Of a stretch of 64,000 nt of DNA, positions 10,735 to 26,497 are shown piece after piece (positions within the stretch are counted from its first letter, which is position 1; each line of letters opens with the position of its first letter). This DNA is from Patescibacteria group bacterium (GTDB lineage: Bacteria > Patescibacteriota > JACPGU01). A program made the position numbers and the translations under genes. The notes below the pieces were generated by a model. The model was not told the origin of the DNA and did not search any database. It saw only the letters and a list, made by a program, of their open reading frames with translations. Where the stretch lies: contig JBAYUK010000001.1 in assembly GCA_041675145.1 (NCBI GenBank), positions 220,057 through 284,056 on the forward strand. The letters run 5' to 3'.

Positions 10735-13700
10735 CTAACTCTTTACCTGAATCTCCCAGTACAATCCAATATCTTTCATCCAATCAACCCCATCTACTAC
10801 TGGAGTAAAGTACGCTTTATATGTACCAGGCTTATCTGGTGCTTTAATACTAAACTGGAATCTGGTATGCCAACCAGGCTCTATTATTGGGTGCATAATA
10901 GTTACAGGACGATTGTTTGACAACCAACTTGCATGTGCAAATTCAGATGCGTAGTCTCGTTGCTGATTGGTTGCACCAAAGGCAGATCCCGTACCAAGCC
11001 TGACAGGATGCTTTCCGACATTAAACCACGGAGTCTTTCCGGTATTTTTAATCTCCACCCACACATTGCTTACCTGTCCTGGCTTCATGACAGCTGGATA
11101 CGGGGATTGCGTAATAAACTGGTAATCATAGAGACGAGGCACTTCATAGCGTATACGCCAACCTGCCACTACAACTTCTGGGTTTGATACCAGACTCGGA
11201 AAGGCGATCTTATTAAGCTCAACTAACCTTTTCCACTGCTCTCTATCTCCATACAACTTTAACGCAATAGTTTTGAGACTATCAAACGGTTGAACAATAT
11301 AGTATGCGATTCCGTCCTCAGCTGAAGTATCAACCACTCCTTCTACTTGACCTACTACTGTTGTACCAGAGGTATAGTCTTTGACGATTATGCCGTTAGC
11401 ACTACCCTGGGCAGTAACAATAGTAAGGGTTGTCTGTGTGAGCCGTATGTGACAGGTATACTTCCATGTTTCGGAAATATCGAGCAAACCGTTATTATTG
11501 ATGTCACCAGACGGGCTAGATAAAGGCGCGCATCCACTATCGGTCACAAGCACGTGCGACAATGGCACCTCGCCAGGATTAGTAACGGTATAGGTATAGT
11601 TAACGACTCCGCCTGCAGCCGGTAATACAGCTGGACTCCTATTTTTCACTACACTAATAACAGGCTGCTGAGGAGTTGCACCAACCGTGAGGGTAAAATC
11701 TGCACTTGCCTGAATAGAAGAACCACCGGCTACTCCAGTAGCAACTACATTACTTTTTGTTGTCTGCGTAACATATGTACTACACGAGAATTCCCAAGTT
11801 TCACTAGCGTCTAGTATGTTGTTACTATTTATATCCCCCGCTATACGAAAAACTGGGCTACATACAGAGTCTGTTACAGCAATAGTACCCACTGGTACGG
11901 TGCTGATATTCTTTACAATATATATATAACTTACTGAACCGGGAACAGACAATGAGTTAGATGGAGTAGCGGATTTTGTAACACTAATCCCTGGAGTAAC
12001 ATTTTGTGGAACATATATACCACCACCAACACTCGTACTAACAGGATTAAGACTCACCGAGATATTCTGTTCTGGTGTGCTGATGAAGTTAGAAGTTGTC
12101 TGCGAGACATACCCTGCGTTACTCGTGCTAAAAGAAAAGGGATTTCTTCCTCCGCTGGTTATAGATAATGAACCGCCGTTACTAATACTAGTAGCAAGAA
12201 TAGGTGTACTTAACGCAGATACCCCAGATATTCCCGTTGTAACCGTTCCGACAAGCTGCTGAAGTGCGTTGCGTATTGTAGTGACTGCTCCATTAATTGG
12301 ACTACTACCCTCTTGTACGGTAGTTTTAACGGTGTAATAAATGTCTAAGTTCCCGGTATTTTGAACATCTAATGCCGAGATAGAAAAGACACTATCTTGC
12401 AACGCATTATTTGCCGTCGTAAGCATAATGACATCTTTTGCGGCACTATTTTGCAAAGTCGAATTTTTAATCACATTACTTGCTGATGTCCCGGTCAAAA
12501 CTACCGCATTATCGTTGTTTGTACTCGTAACTGCTTCAACTATATTATCTGTAGAGTTATGCAATACAATACCTCCGTAGTTGTCGGTAATCACCGTACG
12601 GTGAATAGCTGGCGGAGAAGTATCGCCTGGCTTGACTGAAATACCTTCTGCAGCAGCAGCTGCTGCGTTGTAAGTAAAAACACCATTTGTCACCGTAAAG
12701 ATATTCGGGATATAGTGCTCAACAGTCACCTCACCCGGGTTGGCGCATTGCAAGAATGCACTCGCGCCCGACAGGTAGTTATCCTGTGCAAAAGCAGTAA
12801 GTCGCAACCCCAGATAGTTAACTAAATACAGATTCCAGTTTTGTGGCGTACCTACGAGCGCAGTAATATCATGGTTATTATCTGTAGTAGCATCAAATGG
12901 ACAACTACCTGGAGAGGGAGTTCCTGAAGCAATAAGCATAATATCAGAGCCACCACTCACTGCAGCCCCATCGTCGTACAGATTTACTCCGTCACTCATC
13001 TCAGAATAATCAATTGCATAGGTTGTACTCGTAGGAGAAGTCGAGCCAGTTGTCTTAAGATTCTTAACAGTCGAGTTGGTGAAGTTTGGAAGATATACTG
13101 CATTACTATTCCCACCCGCGTCAAACACCGTCCCTACACCCGCTCCCTGAATCGTTACATTATTAAATGACCCAGTAAGTAGCATCGGGGCGTAAGTTCC
13201 CGCCGCAATATCTACAATATCGCCGTCTTTAAGAATACTACTCAAAAATGTACTAACATTGTTTCCACTAAAGTAGCAAGTAGCGTAGTCGATTGTACAG
13301 CTATCATCAATACTATAGTGTGTTACGCGCGCTGCGGAGAGTACGCCAATATCCTGTGCACCGTTTACATCGAAATAACGGCTCATCGGAGCTGGGTTGT
13401 AATCATCAGCGGTACTGACGTTCTGTGTGCGCAACATAGGATCAGCTGTGGTTGTAGTGGCATCGAGACTCGTAAAAACATTATTCAAGTCAGAAATAGA
13501 TGCTGCTACATGCGAGATACCGTTATATGAATTTGGAATACTTAACGTAACATTCCCAGGAACATAGGTAAGCGCAATGCCGTACCCACTTCCCCCGGGG
13601 GCGGTTGAAGGACTGTAACATAAGTTGTAGTTGACCTGAAGCGTAACAGACGGGTTGCCATGAGACCCATCGTCATACAAACCAAAACAAGTACTACCCG

Positions 13701-14643
13701 AGAGCATTGAGGCATTGGTACCATCGCGCATAATAATAGTATTATGCTCCGCAGTAATAGTCATATCCCCGTCACCAACTCGCAAATTAACTCCCCATGA
13801 GTTACTACTCGCTCCAACAGTCTTTTCCGGGAGGATATAGTAGTTATAGGCAATGTACACTTCAGAGTTACTAAAACTCGTCATCACTGTATAGGTGTCG
13901 TTTTGTACTATCGCAGCATCTATTGTGTTGTTTGTAATATTTATGTTCTCTCCTGCATAAATACTAATATAGTCCCCGGCACTATTTGGTGAGTAGTTTG
14001 AGATATGATTATTGGTAATATCTACATTACTTGAAATAGATGCTGAGTCTGTATAATCAGAGCCGCCGCCAGCAATTGAAGCGCTAATACAACTTTGGTC
14101 AAACCGACAGGTAATGGTGTTGTTGTTAATGACCACGTTATCTGCAGTCTGTAAGCGAATGTTTTGAACTCCGATATTGTTACTTATCTCAATGCCATCA
14201 TCGTTTGTAAGAACAATTTGGCTTTCTGCCGCTGCTGAAATAGTATTTCCGAGCCACTTTACGTTACCTGTGTTACTGGCATCAAAAAAAACATTCTCAA
14301 AAGTACAATTCTGAATAGTGTCATCACCGCTCGGGTTAAGCTGAATTCTTGCACTCGCCTGATCTCCAACAGTATCTGACCCCGGTAAACACTCGAGTGT
14401 AACGCTAACCGGAAGAACAATAGAAGTCCCCTCGTTTGCGTCATTAAAAACATATCCAGCAGTAAGCTGTATGATATCGGCTCCGCCAATACCAGGAGCA
14501 ATAGAAGCGTCATACAGGGACGTAAAATCACAACCACTCGTACAGACAGTATACGTAGTCCCAGCAGCATGAACGCTGCTCGTAAAAGAAAAGAGAGCTA
14601 GTACTACACTAAAAATACAAAAAAGAATTCTACTTTTTTTCAT
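10735..14643 (-). CDS. Giant secreted surface protein: signal peptide, right-handed beta-helix repeats, two DUF11-like repeats, LysM-like segment and C-terminal NBR1-like Ig domain
   Basis: MKKSRILFCIFSVVLALFSFTSSVHA signal. Many N-N-T-I/ITNN beta-helix-like repeats. ASETWEFSCSTYVTQTT and ISETWKYTCHIRLTQTT repeats. YYIVQPFDSLKTIALKLYG (LysM-like). C-terminal KPGQVSNVWVEIKNTGKTPW. Confidence 0.75.
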   Translation of the reverse strand: MKKSRILFCIFSVVLALFSFTSSVHAAGTTYTVCTSGCDFTSLYDASIAPGIGGADIIQLTAGYVFNDANEGTSIVLPVSVTLECLPGSDTVGDQASARIQLNPSGDDTIQNCTFENVFFDASNTGNVKWLGNTISAAAESQIVLTNDDGIEISNNIGVQNIRLQTADNVVINNNTITCRFDQSCISASIAGGGSDYTDSASISSNVDITNNHISNYSPNSAGDYISIYAGENINITNNTIDAAIVQNDTYTVMTSFSNSEVYIAYNYYILPEKTVGASSNSWGVNLRVGDGDMTITAEHNTIIMRDGTNASMLSGSTCFGLYDDGSHGNPSVTLQVNYNLCYSPSTAPGGSGYGIALTYVPGNVTLSIPNSYNGISHVAASISDLNNVFTSLDATTTTADPMLRTQNVSTADDYNPAPMSRYFDVNGAQDIGVLSAARVTHYSIDDSCTIDYATCYFSGNNVSTFLSSILKDGDIVDIAAGTYAPMLLTGSFNNVTIQGAGVGTVFDAGGNSNAVYLPNFTNSTVKNLKTTGSTSPTSTTYAIDYSEMSDGVNLYDDGAAVSGGSDIMLIASGTPSPGSCPFDATTDNNHDITALVGTPQNWNLYLVNYLGLRLTAFAQDNYLSGASAFLQCANPGEVTVEHYIPNIFTVTNGVFTYNAAAAAAEGISVKPGDTSPPAIHRTVITDNYGGIVLHNSTDNIVEAVTSTNNDNAVVLTGTSASNVIKNSTLQNSAAKDVIMLTTANNALQDSVFSISALDVQNTGNLDIYYTVKTTVQEGSSPINGAVTTIRNALQQLVGTVTTGISGVSALSTPILATSISNGGSLSITSGGRNPFSFSTSNAGYVSQTTSNFISTPEQNISVSLNPVSTSVGGGIYVPQNVTPGISVTKSATPSNSLSVPGSVSYIYIVKNISTVPVGTIAVTDSVCSPVFRIAGDINSNNILDASETWEFSCSTYVTQTTKSNVVATGVAGGSSIQASADFTLTVGATPQQPVISVVKNRSPAVLPAAGGVVNYTYTVTNPGEVPLSHVLVTDSGCAPLSSPSGDINNNGLLDISETWKYTCHIRLTQTTLTIVTAQGSANGIIVKDYTSGTTVVGQVEGVVDTSAEDGIAYYIVQPFDSLKTIALKLYGDREQWKRLVELNKIAFPSLVSNPEVVVAGWRIRYEVPRLYDYQFITQSPYPAVMKPGQVSNVWVEIKNTGKTPWFNVGKHPVRLGTGSAFGATNQQRDYASEFAHASWLSNNRPVTIMHPIIEPGWHTRFQFSIKAPDKPGTYKAYFTPVVDGVDWMKDIGLYWEIQVKS

Positions 14644-19785: not shown

Positions 19786-20079
19786 TCATTCAAAGAAATA
19801 CGAGTGGCTACCGATATCAATAAGTATTAAAATTAACTGACTTCTGTCAGTTCTGTATAGCAGTAATACATCACTGCGTATGTGACATTCACGAAATTCT
19901 TGCATATCGCCCTTGAGTTGGTGGTCACGATACTTGCTTGCCAGCTTTTCCCCACGAGCGATCGTACGGATAATATCATTGAGTTCATCTAGTGCCTGTT
20001 GATACTTTCCTGATCGACAAATCTTATTATATGCCTTAACAAATCTTTTTGTTTTAATTTGTTGGTACATCTCAGACAC
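19786..20079 (-). CDS. yafQ: Type II toxin YafQ-like (RelE/ParE superfamily)
   Basis: HQLKGDMQEFRECHIRSDVLLLYRTD...GSHS. 8-bp overlap with the upstream antitoxin. Confidence 0.7.
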   Translation of the reverse strand: MSEMYQQIKTKRFVKAYNKICRSGKYQQALDELNDIIRTIARGEKLASKYRDHQLKGDMQEFRECHIRSDVLLLYRTDRSQLILILIDIGSHSYFFE

Positions 20080-20347
20080 CTAAATCCTTAATAAACTCTT
20101 CAACATCAGTATATACCTTTCCCTCTCGTAATGTCTCCTCGACCTCTTTCTTTAAACGCACAGCAAGCGCTTTTTGCTCAGCCCTAGAAGTAGGCTTTCG
20201 AGAGGGCAAAAAAGGCAAGGCCTGATCATGTACCGCCTGCTGAAAGAACACTTTAATTGCAGTAGACATGTCCATCCCTAGGCCAGCAAAGGTTTTTTGC
20301 GCCTCTTTTTTCAGCGATTCATCAATACGAACATTGAGAGTGGTCAT
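20072..20347 (-). CDS. dinJ: Type II antitoxin DinJ/RelB family
   Basis: MTTLNVRIDESLKKEAQKTFAGLGMDMSTAIKVFFQQAV. Confidence 0.7.
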   Translation of the reverse strand: MTTLNVRIDESLKKEAQKTFAGLGMDMSTAIKVFFQQAVHDQALPFLPSRKPTSRAEQKALAVRLKKEVEETLREGKVYTDVEEFIKDLGV

Positions 20348-20413: not shown

Positions 20414-21486
20414 CTATTCATACCACATGTTCTCGATTTTTTGACCGAGTTCAAAGGTATCTGCATGGCTTAGGACTCCTCGGTACGACTGCATTGTTTG
20501 CAGTAGCTTTTTCTCAACTATCTTTCCGTTTCTATACTCATCCAACTTGTGTCGAATATTTCTAATAATTCGTTGTCGTGTCTTACTTCGAACGAGTCTG
20601 TGGGTCGGAAACACTACATACCCTAGAAAATCTATTCCTTGAGAAAACTTACGAATACTGGTCTTATGCGGGTGAAGTGTGAGTCGCAACTGGTTATGTA
20701 AGAAGCTATTTAGTACTGGGGTTAGCTCCATAAGATACGCCTGGCTATCTGAGACAATCACGAAGTCATCGGTATAGCGCACATAGTTCTTGATACGCAA
20801 GGTATGTTTCACAAACTGATCAAATTCATTCATGTAGATATTGGCGAACAACTGAGATGTGAGGTTTCCAATAGGTATACCTGTTTTTCGGGAGCCCTCC
20901 TTACTCTCTCTCTCTCTCTCTCTCTCTCGAAGGTGCCTACCTGAAGGCTATAGCTTTGGATAATATTCTGGATCAACTGAAGAGCCCGCAAATCAGTGAT
21001 GCGTTTCGAGATAATATCAAATAAGATGTCATGATCGACTGAATCAAAGAATTTACGAACATCACATTTTAGAGCAAAGCATGGGCGAGTGTTGTTACGC
21101 GATACTGAACGCAACATATTCTCAAGAACCGCTACTCCCCGGTGAGTGCCAAAACCTATGCGACAAGAAAAAGATGTGGCTATAAATGTCGGTTCAAAGA
21201 TAGAGTTTAAAACTCTAAACAACGCGTGATGCACTACCCGATCCCGAACTTGAGCTTTATGAATATGTCGCTGTTTGGGATCCTGGATATAAAATCCTTG
21301 ATAAGGCCCGTGCTGATAAGTTTCGCTTTTAAGCTCGCTATAAAGGGCAAATAAGTTTTGCTCTATATCTTTTTCAAAAGCTATCACATCTTCCTTGTGC
21401 CTCTTATCATGTCGGAATTCTTCCCATGATAGAAAGAGATTTGGTACTGAAATAATGGTATGATAGATTTTGGAAAATTTCTGCAT
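20414..21486 (-). pseudogene. DGR reverse transcriptase, interrupted by a +1/-2 frameshift inside a (TC)12 tract
   Basis: N-terminal segment (frame of 20830-21501) has RT motifs 1-3 (FALKCDVRKFFDSVDH). C-terminal frame reads ...GIPIGNLTSQLFANIYMNEF...YVRYTDDFVI (DGR-specific I/LGxxxSQ plus YxDD). The two frames meet in the GA/TC repeat. Confidence 0.8.
20904..20928. repeat. Dinucleotide microsatellite (CT)12C on plus, (GA) on the coding strand, inside the RT gene
   Basis: ttaCTCTCTCTCTCTCTCTCTCTCTCTCga counted directly. Confidence 0.95.
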
Positions 21487-21508
21487 ACTAATAATATACA
21501 ATATCCCA

Positions 21509-21856
21509 ATGGACCACTTCGATATACCCTTATTTAAAAAGTCATACGACCTGTATAAAACACTGTATGGGTACCGTCTTGCTGTACCAAAACTAGATCG
21601 CTATGGTATCTGGCAAAAGACCGAGAATACCTTACTAGAAGTAATCGAACACGTACTCCTTGCAAGTCAAAAAGCAAAACAAGAAAAGATCTCCCATCTA
21701 GAACAAGCAAGCTCAAGCCTGAACCTTCTTCGTGTTTTTATCCGCCTCATGAAAGACACGAAGGCACTGGACATGAAAAAGTACCTCATACTAGAAGTAG
21801 CCATTGAAGAGATAGGCCGCATGCTTGGTGGCTGGATAAAGTCTACAAAAGAATAA
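21509..21856 (+). CDS. avd: DGR accessory variability determinant (Avd), four-helix-bundle family
   Basis: MDHFDIPLFKKSYDLYK... and C-terminal LEVAIEEIGRMLGGWIKSTKE resemble Bordetella bAvd (..IAEVGRILGSWI..). ATG at 21509. Alternative TTG at 21470. Confidence 0.7.
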   Translation: MDHFDIPLFKKSYDLYKTLYGYRLAVPKLDRYGIWQKTENTLLEVIEHVLLASQKAKQEKISHLEQASSSLNLLRVFIRLMKDTKALDMKKYLILEVAIEEIGRMLGGWIKSTKE

Positions 21857-21881
21857 ATACCCACTAAGAGTGGGTATTTAT
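21856..21881 (+). terminator. Hairpin terminator directly after the avd stop
   Basis: atacccact-aag-agtgggtat then ttat. Confidence 0.5.
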
Positions 21882-21901
21882 AACCTGTTCTAGGCGAGAT
21901 G

Positions 21902-22019
21902 ACTTCCGGGAGGACGACACGCCCACATTGTCGTTGCGGTTACTGTCCCAGTTGTTGTTGACATTGAGACCGTCGCCATCAAAGCTGCCAATGTTGACAT
22001 GGTTGCCGTCCGAATCGAT
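21902..22019 (-). repeat. DGR template repeat (TR)
   Basis: 118 bp collinear with 22368-22485. 15 mismatches, all at plus-strand T (= A in the minus-sense TR). Encodes an Asn-rich peptide (NHVNIGSFDGDGLNVNNNWDSNRNDN). Confidence 0.85.
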
Positions 22020-22271
22020 AATTGCCTTTCTCCATCCGTTGTGTTTCACTAGAAATCGAGACGTTTACCGCACTGCTTATCTCTTTTTCCTGTATCTTTT
22101 TTGGGGGCTTACTCCACCAGAGAGAGGCAAGAAGTTCGATCTCTATCCTTTTTTGCACACTACCGTCATCCTTAGATAACGATACTCCGGCATCCCAGGC
22201 GAGATATCTCGTGAGTTTAAACCGTAATCCAAACTACATGAACGAGATACTCATACTATATAAGAATTCAA

Positions 22272-22309
22272 AGTAAAAGAAAATGCCGACAGCTAAAGCT
22301 GCCGGCATT
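22272..22309 (-). terminator. Rho-independent terminator of the DGR target gene
   Basis: atgccgacagc-taaa-gctgccggcat followed by a T-run on the minus strand. Confidence 0.5.
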
Positions 22310-22335
22310 GCAAAAAGGGTTCAAAAGTAAAAGTA

Positions 22336-23151
22336 TTAGGGGTTCAAGGACTCAAGAGCCTTCGTAAACTTCCGGGAGGACGACACGCCCACATCGTCGC
22401 CGCGGTAACTGCCCCAGTAGCTGTCGACATCGAGACCGCCGCCATCAAAGCTGCCAATGCGGACAAGGCTGCCGCCCGAATCGATGGAAGCCGTCCTGGC
22501 ATAGAGCTTCATAAAGATCCGCTCCCCAGTGGCCAAGAAATGGCCGATGATGGTATACACCATCACCTGAGCGGTGGGAACTTCTTCGAGCTCCTTGTCC
22601 AGAAGCTCACCTTGCTCGCTCCAGTTTTTAGCAAGCGATCCTGGCACCTCGTCCTTGCGGACCAAGTACCACCCAACGGTTCCTTTTTCTTGAGCAAAAG
22701 CCTGGGAATTGTACCAGGCATCCTCATGCCGATAGAAGAGCGCTCTCTCGACTCTGGACCTTATATCCAGAATGGAGAGCGGAAAAACAGCCACGAGAAT
22801 GTGGGTTGTCTTACACGCACGCAACTCCTCTTCAGAGTACGGCACTTCTTCCAGAGTCTGCAACTCTTCAAGGGTAGGAGTAATGCCGAAGTGTTTTGTG
22901 GCCTCTTCCACCCCGAAGTAGTTGCTTCCCATAATCCTGCGTGCCTTCACCTGGGATTGTGAGGACTTGCTCGTCATGGCAATGAATTCGACAGCCCTTC
23001 GGGCAGCCTCACCCATCATTTCCTGGAAAATATCACTGTTGACGACTGCCAACTGTGCGTTTTCCTTGCTCGTTTCTGCCAAGCCTTGCTTGGCGCCGAT
23101 CTCGGCCAACTGACCGAGTTTGTCTTTCTGTCCGGATGTGATCAATTTCAT
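22336..23151 (-). CDS. DGR target (variable) protein with C-terminal VR
   Basis: C-terminus ...IDSGGSLVRIGSFDGGGLDVDSYWGSYRGDDVGVSSSRKF aligns with the TR-encoded peptide. AAGGAGG RBS. Confidence 0.8.
   Translation of the reverse strand: MKLITSGQKDKLGQLAEIGAKQGLAETSKENAQLAVVNSDIFQEMMGEAARRAVEFIAMTSKSSQSQVKARRIMGSNYFGVEEATKHFGITPTLEELQTLEEVPYSEEELRACKTTHILVAVFPLSILDIRSRVERALFYRHEDAWYNSQAFAQEKGTVGWYLVRKDEVPGSLAKNWSEQGELLDKELEEVPTAQVMVYTIIGHFLATGERIFMKLYARTASIDSGGSLVRIGSFDGGGLDVDSYWGSYRGDDVGVSSSRKFTKALESLNP
22368..22485 (-). repeat. DGR variable repeat (VR) at the 3' end of the target gene
   Basis: Offset +466 from the TR, no indels. 3'-proximal 27 nt (plus 22368-22394) identical to the TR and GC-rich (IMH-like). 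Confidence 0.85.
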
Positions 23152-23201
23152 GTCATCATCCTCCTTTGTAATCTCCCATCCGAGGTAGTGTGAGTACTTT
23201 C

Positions 23202-23250
23202 AGACGAGGGAACTGCTTACCTTCAATACCAGGCAGGCAACTCCCTCATC
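23202..23250 (-). promoter_or_regulatory. 15-bp stem-loop in the 5' leader of the DGR target mRNA
   Basis: Minus-sense AGAUGAGGGAGUUGC-19 nt-GCAGUUCCCUCGUCU, fully paired with 3 G-U wobbles. Lies 35 nt upstream of the RBS. Confidence 0.45.
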
Positions 23251-23284
23251 TGAAATAGGTTAGTTTTCAAAGATCAATTTCTAT

Positions 23285-23452: not shown

Positions 23453-23971
23453 CTAAAATACACTCTCTTCTGCTATTTTTTGCCTAATATCACCATCATC
23501 TAAATATACAAAATATTTATTAGATAACTTCTTATAAAGTGAGGATCTAAACCTTCTATTTGGAAATAATATTTTTTCTAGTCTTTCTTCCTCAACAAGA
23601 AAATCGATTAACATTTTGTAGTCCCCATCTCCAGAAACTAACACGATTTTCCCGAAATCTTCTCGTCTATATATTCGTACCATAATGTTGAAGATAATAT
23701 CAGAATCAACATTCCCCTTCTTGGTGCCGAGCATAGCAGCGTTATGTTGACGAAAAACTAAAATAAAACCTGCGAGTTGTATCTCTTCATATAAATCCTG
23801 ATATTGTTCTTGGACATAGCCTAAATAGTAATATGCCTGAGTAACGCCATATTTCTTTTCAAGATATACACGAAAACGAGCTAGATCAATATTCCAAGGA
23901 GGATCGATTTTGGCTGTACCCATATATAGATTCTGTCCATCAATAAACGCATAGTTGTTTTGTTTTTGCAT
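23453..23971 (-). CDS. NYN-domain (LabA-like) protein, predicted RNase
   Basis: YAFIDGQNLY ... VLVSGDGDY signature. Confidence 0.75.
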   Translation of the reverse strand: MQKQNNYAFIDGQNLYMGTAKIDPPWNIDLARFRVYLEKKYGVTQAYYYLGYVQEQYQDLYEEIQLAGFILVFRQHNAAMLGTKKGNVDSDIIFNIMVRIYRREDFGKIVLVSGDGDYKMLIDFLVEEERLEKILFPNRRFRSSLYKKLSNKYFVYLDDGDIRQKIAEESVF

Positions 23972-25991: not shown

Positions 25992-26246
25992 CTATTTATT
26001 ATAAACATCTCTCCTGTGCCCAGCTTTTAGCACAATAATACACTCACCCACAATGTCAAAAAAAACACGGTAGTCGCCAATACGAAACTTAAATGTACCA
26101 AGCTCAGGATCAAGTAATCTCTCGGCGTGCCGGTAAGGATCAGCCAGATTCCGAACAAGCGTTTTGTCTATTCTTTTCCGAACTACAAAATCAAGTTTCT
26201 GTATTTGCTTGAGAGCTCTATTTGTATACTGATATTCGTATGCCAT
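25992..26246 (-). CDS. Type II toxin, RelE/ParE family
   Basis: FKFRIGDYRVFFDIVGECIIVLKAGHRRDVY. Confidence 0.7.
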   Translation of the reverse strand: MAYEYQYTNRALKQIQKLDFVVRKRIDKTLVRNLADPYRHAERLLDPELGTFKFRIGDYRVFFDIVGECIIVLKAGHRRDVYNK

Positions 26247-26251
26247 AAGAC

Positions 26252-26497
26252 CTACCCAAAAACCTCTTCGTGAGAATGCAACTTACCTTGCTTTGCCTCA
26301 AGGCGAGCGGCACGAATATCCGCAAGAAATTCTGGTGAAGACAGCGCCAACAGATCCTCAAAATAGTCCAGATTAATCAAAGCTGAGACTGCTTTTCCTT
26401 TATTGGTGATTACGAAGTACTTCTCTTTTTCGTTTACCAAACGAATAGCATCTGCAATGTTATCACGAAACGCCGATGTGGTAAGTGTTTTTTCCAT
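26252..26497 (-). CDS. Type II antitoxin, Phd/YefM family
   Basis: MEKTLTTSAFRDNIADAIRLVNEKEKYFVITNKGKAVSALINLDYFEDLL. Confidence 0.7.
   Translation of the reverse strand: MEKTLTTSAFRDNIADAIRLVNEKEKYFVITNKGKAVSALINLDYFEDLLALSSPEFLADIRAARLEAKQGKLHSHEEVFG

Follow-up and report, generated by a model that had tools for sequence, protein, structure and literature searches.

We analysed a 64,000-nucleotide stretch (hereafter the window) of the genome of a Patescibacteria group bacterium, a member of the candidate phyla radiation (CPR; GenBank assembly GCA_041675145.1, contig JBAYUK010000001.1, positions 220,057 to 284,056), which contains a chromosomal diversity-generating retroelement (DGR) at window positions 20414 to 23151. 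The locus comprises a target gene with a variable repeat (VR), a template repeat (TR), an avd gene and a DGR-clade reverse transcriptase (RT), and all tests that we ran supported this identification. The most interesting feature of the locus is that the RT is spread over two open reading frames (ORFs), and the need to join them stems from a hypermutable (GA)n tract within the gene. Our reading, to which we give a probability of roughly three in four, is that this is an ordinary CPR DGR whose RT contains a conserved phase switch of the slipped-strand kind, and that the switch is OFF in this assembly.

A dinucleotide tract splits the reverse transcriptase gene

The features of the RT gene, in window coordinates, are the following:

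20830 to 21486, minus strand: RT 5' part, with the RT motifs up to LKCDVRKFFDSVDH; in the wrong frame after the tract, with a stop at 20830
20904 to 20927, minus strand: (GA)12 tract, which reads CT on the plus strand and codes for an (ER)n loop immediately before motif 4
20414 to 20903, minus strand: RT 3' part, with GIPIGNLTSQ, YVRYTDD and the thumb; its open frame is -1 with respect to the 5' part

The 5' ORF starts with an ATG at 21486 and ends at 20830, after motif 3 and before motif 4, without the catalytic YxDD. Motifs 4 to 7 and the thumb are open in another frame down to 20414, and the frameshift lies inside the tract. A preliminary description of this DNA, made from the sequence alone, had called the DGR complete. 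The target with its VR, the TR, Avd and a DGR-clade RT are indeed all present. However, the RT is split over two ORFs and the truncated one stops after motif 3 without YxDD, so that "complete" does not hold for this allele.

The (GA)12 tract is the sole dinucleotide repeat of at least six units in the window. With 11 units the gene encodes an RT of 356 residues and with 14 units one of 358 residues, colinear with homologues over 100% of the length. The tract-encoded (ER)n loop is a 17-residue insertion relative to bRT, the RT of Bordetella phage BPP-1, and is located directly before GIPIGxLTSQ. Since (ER)n is read in all three frames of (GA)n, the loop only varies in length in alleles with the RT in frame (ON).

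The target protein is identical to MFA7308708.1 (locus tag WC045_01405), which is encoded on a contig of 428 kb. In the accessions MFA7308702 to MFA7308710 of the NCBI metagenome-assembled genome (MAG), exactly five proteins lie between the target (MFA7308708) and UvrC (MFA7308702), as expected for Avd, RelB, YafQ and an RT in two fragments. It thus seems that the RT is annotated publicly as two proteins, and ORF-based DGR finders would therefore not see an intact RT.

Assemblies of the same lineage differ in the tract

Exact-protein look-up provided two sister assemblies, L201 (ENA ERZ27247358, a 377-kb contig) and L202 (Logan SRR6484325). The window was compared with L201 over 12.5 kb and with L202 over 8.3 kb, and only two differences were found. 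The first is one GA unit: both sister assemblies have (GA)11, and gene callers give a single, intact RT of 356 residues. The second is base 22439, located in the VR at a TR-adenine site, which is the sole substitution in 12.5 kb and places Gly (window) or Asp (sister assemblies) at residue 238. The TR is identical in the window and both sister assemblies. Since only these two sites vary, the sites predicted to be hypervariable, the tract and a VR adenine position, are the sole variable ones. The VR variation between the assemblies, which would bear on ongoing mutagenic retrohoming, amounts to this one event at a TR-adenine site. The comparison shows real allelic variation and not copied sequence.

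The frameshift could also be an artefact of sequencing or assembly in a difficult repeat, in which case the real RT would be intact and the DGR constitutively intact. The two other assemblies of the region, with (GA)11 and an intact RT, are in line with this, and PCR stutter is common in dinucleotide repeats. However, the window differs at the VR base as well and so stands for another consensus or population instead of a faulty copy, and the 24-nt tract is far below read and assembler k-mer lengths. Considering also the frames of related loci from many studies (see below), we regard an artefact as quite improbable.

The tract is conserved across a deep clade of reverse transcriptases

We scanned metagenomes for (GA)7 or longer at 5 to 36 nt upstream of PIGNLT (CCN-ATH-GGN-AAY-YTN-AC). 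At least 120 contigs (L081 to L200) were found, that is, at least 120 metagenomic RT genes with such a tract at the same site. An (ER)n of at least five residues occurs at the corresponding alignment position in 34 of the 120 best RT homologues, a set that by construction contains intact proteins only. The tract-bearing RTs show mutual identities down to 28% in the C-terminal half (median 48%). In a neighbour-joining tree, tract-bearing and tract-less RTs are interspersed, with at least 23 state changes. Outside the tract, GAG accounts for 35% of the Glu codons and AGA for 27.5% of the Arg codons, and the chance of even four GAG-AGA pairs from codon usage is about 9e-5. The tract is thus pure at the level of the DNA, and not as an effect of codon usage.

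The frame of each locus was called by comparing the frame of the upstream motif (L/W)(K/R)xD(I/V)xKFF with that of PIGNLT. Among the 97 non-redundant classifiable tract loci listed, 19 were in frame and 78 were out of frame (OFF), 43 of them in one shifted frame and 35 in the other. In contrast, all classifiable tract-less relatives from reference genomes were in frame (51/51); this control came from a genome-contig scan with one genome per species, which returned mostly tract-less relatives. Random consensus errors would not yield such a contrast between 78/97 and 0/51 loci out of frame, which speaks against the artefact discussed above.

In several pairs of contigs whose flanks are 98.8 to 100% identical, the tract lengths differ by whole GA units, and part of these pairs also differ in ON/OFF state. 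For example, the tract is 18 nt long and OFF in L082 and L112 as opposed to 20 nt and ON in L102, and it is 15 nt and OFF in L094 as opposed to 19 nt and ON in L200. Further pairs with GA-unit differences are L142 and L154, L116 and L118, and L152 and L185. The pair L113/L132 was dropped because L132 begins inside the tract. L134, which carries two tracts on one contig and was considered as a case of within-sample polymorphism, joins two different RT genes through Ns in one scaffold and is thus uninformative.

If the tract were only a mutational liability, the out-of-frame copies, including that of the window, would be dead DGRs heading to decay. Most tract-bearing copies are indeed out of frame, and the ON fraction is below one third. 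However, an intact 3' ORF of at least 125 residues is present in 60 of 61 OFF loci. An A-biased VR-TR pair in the same arrangement was found in 36 of the 44 OFF loci with enough upstream sequence, and in 10 of 13 in-frame loci. The kept pairs have 9 to 25 adenine-site differences and 0 to 5 non-A mismatches; the OFF loci, with non-A mismatches as few as in ON loci (0/15 in the window), are indistinguishable from the in-frame loci. Furthermore, ON and OFF alleles coexist in 99 to 100% identical backgrounds, and the tract is held at one position across RTs that are 28 to 50% identical. We therefore consider decay a very improbable explanation.

The frameshift might instead be bypassed in expression, by RNA-polymerase slippage or ribosomal frameshifting, in which case all alleles would produce some full-length RT and the tract would tune RT dosage instead of acting as a switch. 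The nearly equal use of both shifted frames (43 vs 35) is expected if the genomic frame matters little, and transcriptional slippage at slippery tracts occurs in some bacteria. However, well-documented transcriptional slippage concerns homopolymers and not dinucleotide repeats. No conserved frameshift direction or downstream stimulator was found at these loci, which argues against programmed ribosomal frameshifting, and length polymorphism was directly observed at the DNA level. Bypass therefore appears unlikely as the explanation of the split frame.

We also considered a naturally split RT, with the purine-rich tract as a ribosome-binding site and the part with motifs 4 to 7 and the thumb translated apart and then assembled with the N-terminal part. 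A Shine-Dalgarno-like TAAGGAGG lies directly after the tract in the window, but the window has no start codon before motif 4. Only 35 of 85 OFF loci have an in-frame ATG, GTG or TTG between the tract and PIGNLT, where the spacing is 5 to 36 nt, and fused in-frame alleles exist in the same lineages. We rejected this reading, as extremely improbable, for want of a conserved restart codon.

The ON fraction of about 20% is lower than the 33% under neutral drift of a dinucleotide tract (binomial p = 0.003), which suggests selection for OFF or a length bias in slippage. The low fraction is also compatible with a cost of RT expression, although this is a hint only.

Two observations on individual contigs were made in this set. 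In the identical loci L114 and L131, the RT 3' frame runs 347 residues past motif 4, vs about 155 residues as usual, and the RT seems to bear a C-terminal extension or fusion; the GA tract there is 17 nt long and out of frame. L082 and L102 (compared at L082 positions 1567 to 1980 and 2770 to 2830) have identical RT flanks, different tract lengths and a substitution cluster in the VR. They also show a divergent patch about 1 kb further upstream, inside or before the target gene, for which the TR does not account.

Identity of the reverse transcriptase

The motifs GIPIGNLTSQ, which the preliminary description had read as DGR-diagnostic, and YVRYTDDFVI are both present in the RT. A motif 4 of the form [I/L/V]GxxxSQ is diagnostic of DGR-clade RTs. 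A profile of the RT and 20 homologues was run against PDB chains, and the best solved match was 8ub7_A with 208 bits, a chain that matches brt of Bordetella phage BPP-1 with 100% identity. Scores were 114 bits for the best group II intron RT, 108 bits for chains named "retron-type" RT, and likewise below 114 bits for defence RTs. These scores support the placement of the RT in the DGR clade, closest to bRT, rather than with group II intron or retron RTs, the grouping that had been named as evidence against a DGR. The NCBIfam scan gave a group II intron maturase model as the best match, with 154 bits at a cut-off of 300; since no DGR RT model was among the NCBIfam matches, this result says nothing against DGR membership. 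The RT is 55 to 61% identical to hundreds of Patescibacteria RTs.

Layout of the element, Avd and the TR-VR pair

The remaining features of the element are the following:

22336 to 23151, minus strand: target gene, 271 residues; the C-terminal part was modelled as an FGE-type C-type-lectin fold
22368 to 22485, minus strand: VR, encoding target residues 223 to 261 (approximate); 15 mismatches to the TR in 118 bp
22439, minus strand: VR site polymorphic between assemblies; G in the window, A in L201 and L202, A in the TR
22368 to 22393, minus strand: GC-rich VR 3' end, a boundary like the initiation of mutagenic homing (IMH) site; same as the TR 3' end
22282 to 22309, minus strand: hairpin with a 12-bp stem, followed by a T-run; directly past the target stop codon
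21902 to 22019, minus strand: TR, with 31 adenines and 7 AAC codons
21853 to 21881, minus strand: perfect hairpin with a 13-bp stem, between the avd 3' end and the TR, which ends 20 nt upstream; followed by a T-rich run (minus strand)
21509 to 21856, plus strand: avd, 115 residues; bAvd profile match; strand opposite to the RT

The order is target-VR, TR, avd and RT, with the target, TR and RT on the minus strand and avd on the plus strand. The earlier reading of the whole cassette on the minus strand is thus correct for the target, TR and RT, but not for avd, whose start codon is 22 nt from that of the RT in a divergent arrangement. Searches with hidden Markov models agreed with the assignment of Avd: the ORF at 21509 to 21856 matched Pfam PF22296 (bAvd) with 66.5 bits (cut-off 40), and it scored 79.6 bits with NCBIfam DivGenRetAVD, just 0.4 under the cut-off of 80. 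In Wu et al. 2018 (PMC5758913), the arrangement TR-(avd)-RT, in which avd is encoded on the reverse strand, is architecture B3, which makes up 90% of the CPR DGR set. Because this layout is standard for CPR DGRs, the element itself is not unusual.

The TR and VR could be aligned without gaps over 118 bp, and all 15 mismatches are at TR adenines (p = 8e-11, hypergeometric, 31 A in 118 nt). Read in the VR frame, the TR has seven AAC codons, and each of its 31 adenines occupies codon position 1 or 2. AAC codons and adenines at codon positions 1 and 2 are the classic DGR design. A GC-rich block of 26 nt is common to the TR and VR, and the homology ends directly downstream of it. The VR forms the C-terminus of the 271-residue ORF at 22336 to 23151 on the minus strand, and thus lies in the 3' part of a coding gene, as is characteristic of DGRs, whose VRs typically belong to a C-type-lectin or Ig fold. 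The 118-bp TR and the VR-ending target were therefore as first described, and the adenine-biased pattern, the lack of which had been named as a possible refutation, was found again on re-inspection. No second VR or remote target was found in the window, whether it was searched with the IMH-like 26-mer at up to three mismatches or with a TR pattern of 80 nt in which each A was replaced by N.

The hairpin at 22282 to 22309 may be terminator-like, an inverted repeat of the kind often found downstream of the VR, or both. The hairpin at 21853 to 21881 may be a 3' structure of the TR RNA, a bidirectional terminator, or both. A near-consensus sigma-70-like promoter (TTGACA-17-GATAAT, 11/12) lies at 21994 to 22022 on the plus strand, in TR antisense and pointing into target antisense. 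The scan for sigma-70 promoters showed no enrichment, with 7 sites vs 5.2 expected from shuffles, so this site may be due to chance.

Target protein

The target is a member of a CPR-wide family of hypothetical proteins of about 255 residues without a Pfam domain. Searches of the target against Pfam, NCBIfam and PDB sequences gave no matches. The structure model had moderate confidence overall, with low pLDDT (predicted local distance difference test) values in the VR segment itself. An N-terminal region of about 60 residues is helical. With moderate confidence, the C-terminal part is predicted to adopt an FGE-type C-type-lectin-like fold, as the preliminary description had expected. The target was set beside the DGR variable proteins TvpA, TaqVP and Mtd, with values of 6.0, 4.4 and 4.1, respectively. 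These FGE-type proteins (TvpA 2y3c, TaqVP 5vf4, Mtd 1yu0) differ from the target in that no sequence similarity is detectable: the target family profile had no match in the PDB at E <= 1 and no match to Pfam FGE-sulfatase.

A purely heuristic scan found no hydrophobic segment in the target, either N-terminal or internal, which agrees with the earlier statement that the target has no signal peptide. The target is apparently intracellular, and its sequence is compatible with a cytoplasmic location. About 45 nt upstream of the target start codon, at 23198 to 23255, lies an imperfect inverted repeat whose 25-nt arms are 80% complementary and separated by 8 nt. It is not an obvious terminator because it has no T-run, and it could be a regulatory element of the target gene.

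Genomic setting

The DGR is flanked by housekeeping genes, including uvrB, uvrC, rpsP, trmD, priA and secG. It is chromosomal and has no phage structural genes nearby. The neighbours are priA, rpsP, khpA, trmD, a C39 peptidase gene, Phd/ParE, uvrB, an NYN-domain gene, the DGR, RelB/YafQ, uvrC, a gene with an RF-1 domain (PF00472), secG and others. Two type II toxin-antitoxin pairs bracket the region (19786 to 20347 and 25992 to 26497), with RelB/YafQ directly downstream of the RT and Phd/ParE directly upstream of uvrB. The DGR, the NYN-domain gene (23453 to 23971) and RelB/YafQ lie between uvrB and uvrC and resemble an inserted island. A NosD/CLIPPER_2-domain protein of 1302 residues (10735 to 14643), about 6 kb from the DGR, is probably one of the large surface proteins that CPR genomes typically encode, and it lacks any VR-like repeat. 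A scan of the whole window at the Rfam gathering threshold gave six tRNAs only, with no known RNA family at the DGR.

Comparison with known systems

Taken by itself, the DGR is an ordinary representative of the well-described CPR B3 class. It shares with other CPR B3 DGRs the gene order, the reverse-strand avd, the small hypothetical target with a C-terminal VR and the chromosomal site. The closest known CPR/Patescibacteria DGR sets also include those of Paul et al. 2017 and, in Roux et al. 2021 (PMC8144416), DGR clade 2. Wu et al. 2018 took only "putatively functional" DGRs. Such a selection would tend to leave out frameshifted RTs. The core anatomy shows no difference from the B3 class. An in-gene (GA)n tract with frame polymorphism is unmentioned in the surveys consulted.

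The mtd-avd-TR-brt element of Bordetella phage BPP-1 resembles the present DGR in several respects. Its brt is the closest solved RT, and the two share the IGxLTSQ motif 4 and YxDD, an Avd of the four-helix-bundle family, adenine-specific TR-to-VR substitutions and a VR at the C-terminus of a C-type-lectin-type fold. In contrast to the phage element, the present one is chromosomal, its avd is inverted between the TR and RT, its target is small and apparently cytoplasmic as opposed to a tail fibre, and its RT has the 17-residue (ER)n insertion before motif 4, arising from the slippery repeat.

The tract itself resembles simple sequence repeat (SSR) contingency loci. A close precedent is the (AG)12 coding phase switch in the MmyCI methyltransferase gene of Mycoplasma mycoides (PMC3498834). 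MmyCI, the SSR genes of Neisseria, Haemophilus and Campylobacter, and the present RT all have a long perfect coding repeat with a unit number that varies between otherwise identical genomes, and a change of unit shifts the frame and truncates the protein while both gene halves are intact. Characters of a contingency gene found here are a long perfect SSR within the coding frame, a unit number that toggles the frame between near-identical genomes, and OFF alleles that are not decaying. The present case differs in that the putatively switched gene drives a second, targeted hypermutation system, and in that the hosts are uncultured environmental CPR bacteria rather than host-adapted pathogens.

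Proposed switch and its implications

In the BPP-1 model, RT-Avd reverse-transcribes TR RNA, with misincorporation specific to adenines, and the resulting cDNA takes the place of the VR as far as the GC-rich boundary at the 3' side. By analogy, whenever the RT is made, the RT-Avd complex of the present element would copy TR RNA to cDNA, misreading adenines. The cDNA would then replace the VR and recode about 20 residues on the ligand-binding face of the predicted C-type-lectin/FGE-like C-terminal domain. The (GA)n tract, between RT motifs 3 and 4, would encode a tolerant loop on the protein surface. Slipped-strand mispairing at replication would add or remove a GA unit and thereby place two-thirds of the catalytic domain, on the 3' side, in frame or out of it. 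Since the unit is 2 nt, unit changes cycle through ON, OFF, OFF and ON, and each OFF allele is one step from ON. The 12 units of the window would correspond to RT OFF, and the 11 units of the sister assemblies to RT ON. Only a stochastic subpopulation would diversify the target, and the remaining cells would keep a fixed VR and be spared the cost of the RT. The data show the anatomy of the DGR, the length polymorphism of the tract in the DNA, the toggling of the frame, the conserved tract in a deep RT clade and the intact halves of OFF alleles. Reversal within a clone, a link between tract state and retrohoming, and an adaptive value of the switch are inferred from these.

Several points weigh against this reading. 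Switching within one population, its reversibility and the control of VR diversification by tract state are proposed on the basis of assemblies. The ON and OFF alleles of this lineage differ by one VR base only. The two sister assemblies may share reads and possibly derive from the sample of the window's MAG; ON and OFF would then reflect a choice of consensus in a mixed population, which still implies polymorphism. The low ON fraction fits selection for OFF, but it could have other causes. Bypass at the level of expression could coexist with phase variation, as the two are not mutually exclusive. Finally, our full-text literature search, whose coverage did not include Paul et al. 2017, yielded no account of phase variation, or of a repeat tract, in the RT gene of a DGR; since that is the main paper on CPR DGRs, priority is uncertain.

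A broader proposal is that a large Patescibacteria DGR RT clade carries a conserved (GA)n switch in the catalytic domain. Targeted hypermutation would then be phase-variable: most cells, like about 80% of the assembled alleles, would be OFF, and the gain or loss of one unit would turn the RT ON stochastically. We regard the chances for and against this proposal as evenly balanced.

DGRs are especially abundant in CPR bacteria. To our knowledge, they are the only natural targeted protein hypermutation system in prokaryotes, and we know of almost nothing on the control of their activity. If this proposal is true, the switch would represent a previously undescribed regulatory layer for DGRs, and ORF-based DGR surveys would systematically miss most members of the clade. 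Pipelines that ask for an intact RT ORF would drop about four fifths of the tract-bearing elements or call them pseudogenes. Tract length modulo 3 would provide a simple sequence read-out of the DGR ON state in metagenomes, with which the link between RT state and VR diversity is directly testable in existing reads. A stochastic repeat switch in the RT would explain how a cell with a small genome can limit the cost of an error-prone RT and yet remain able to diversify.

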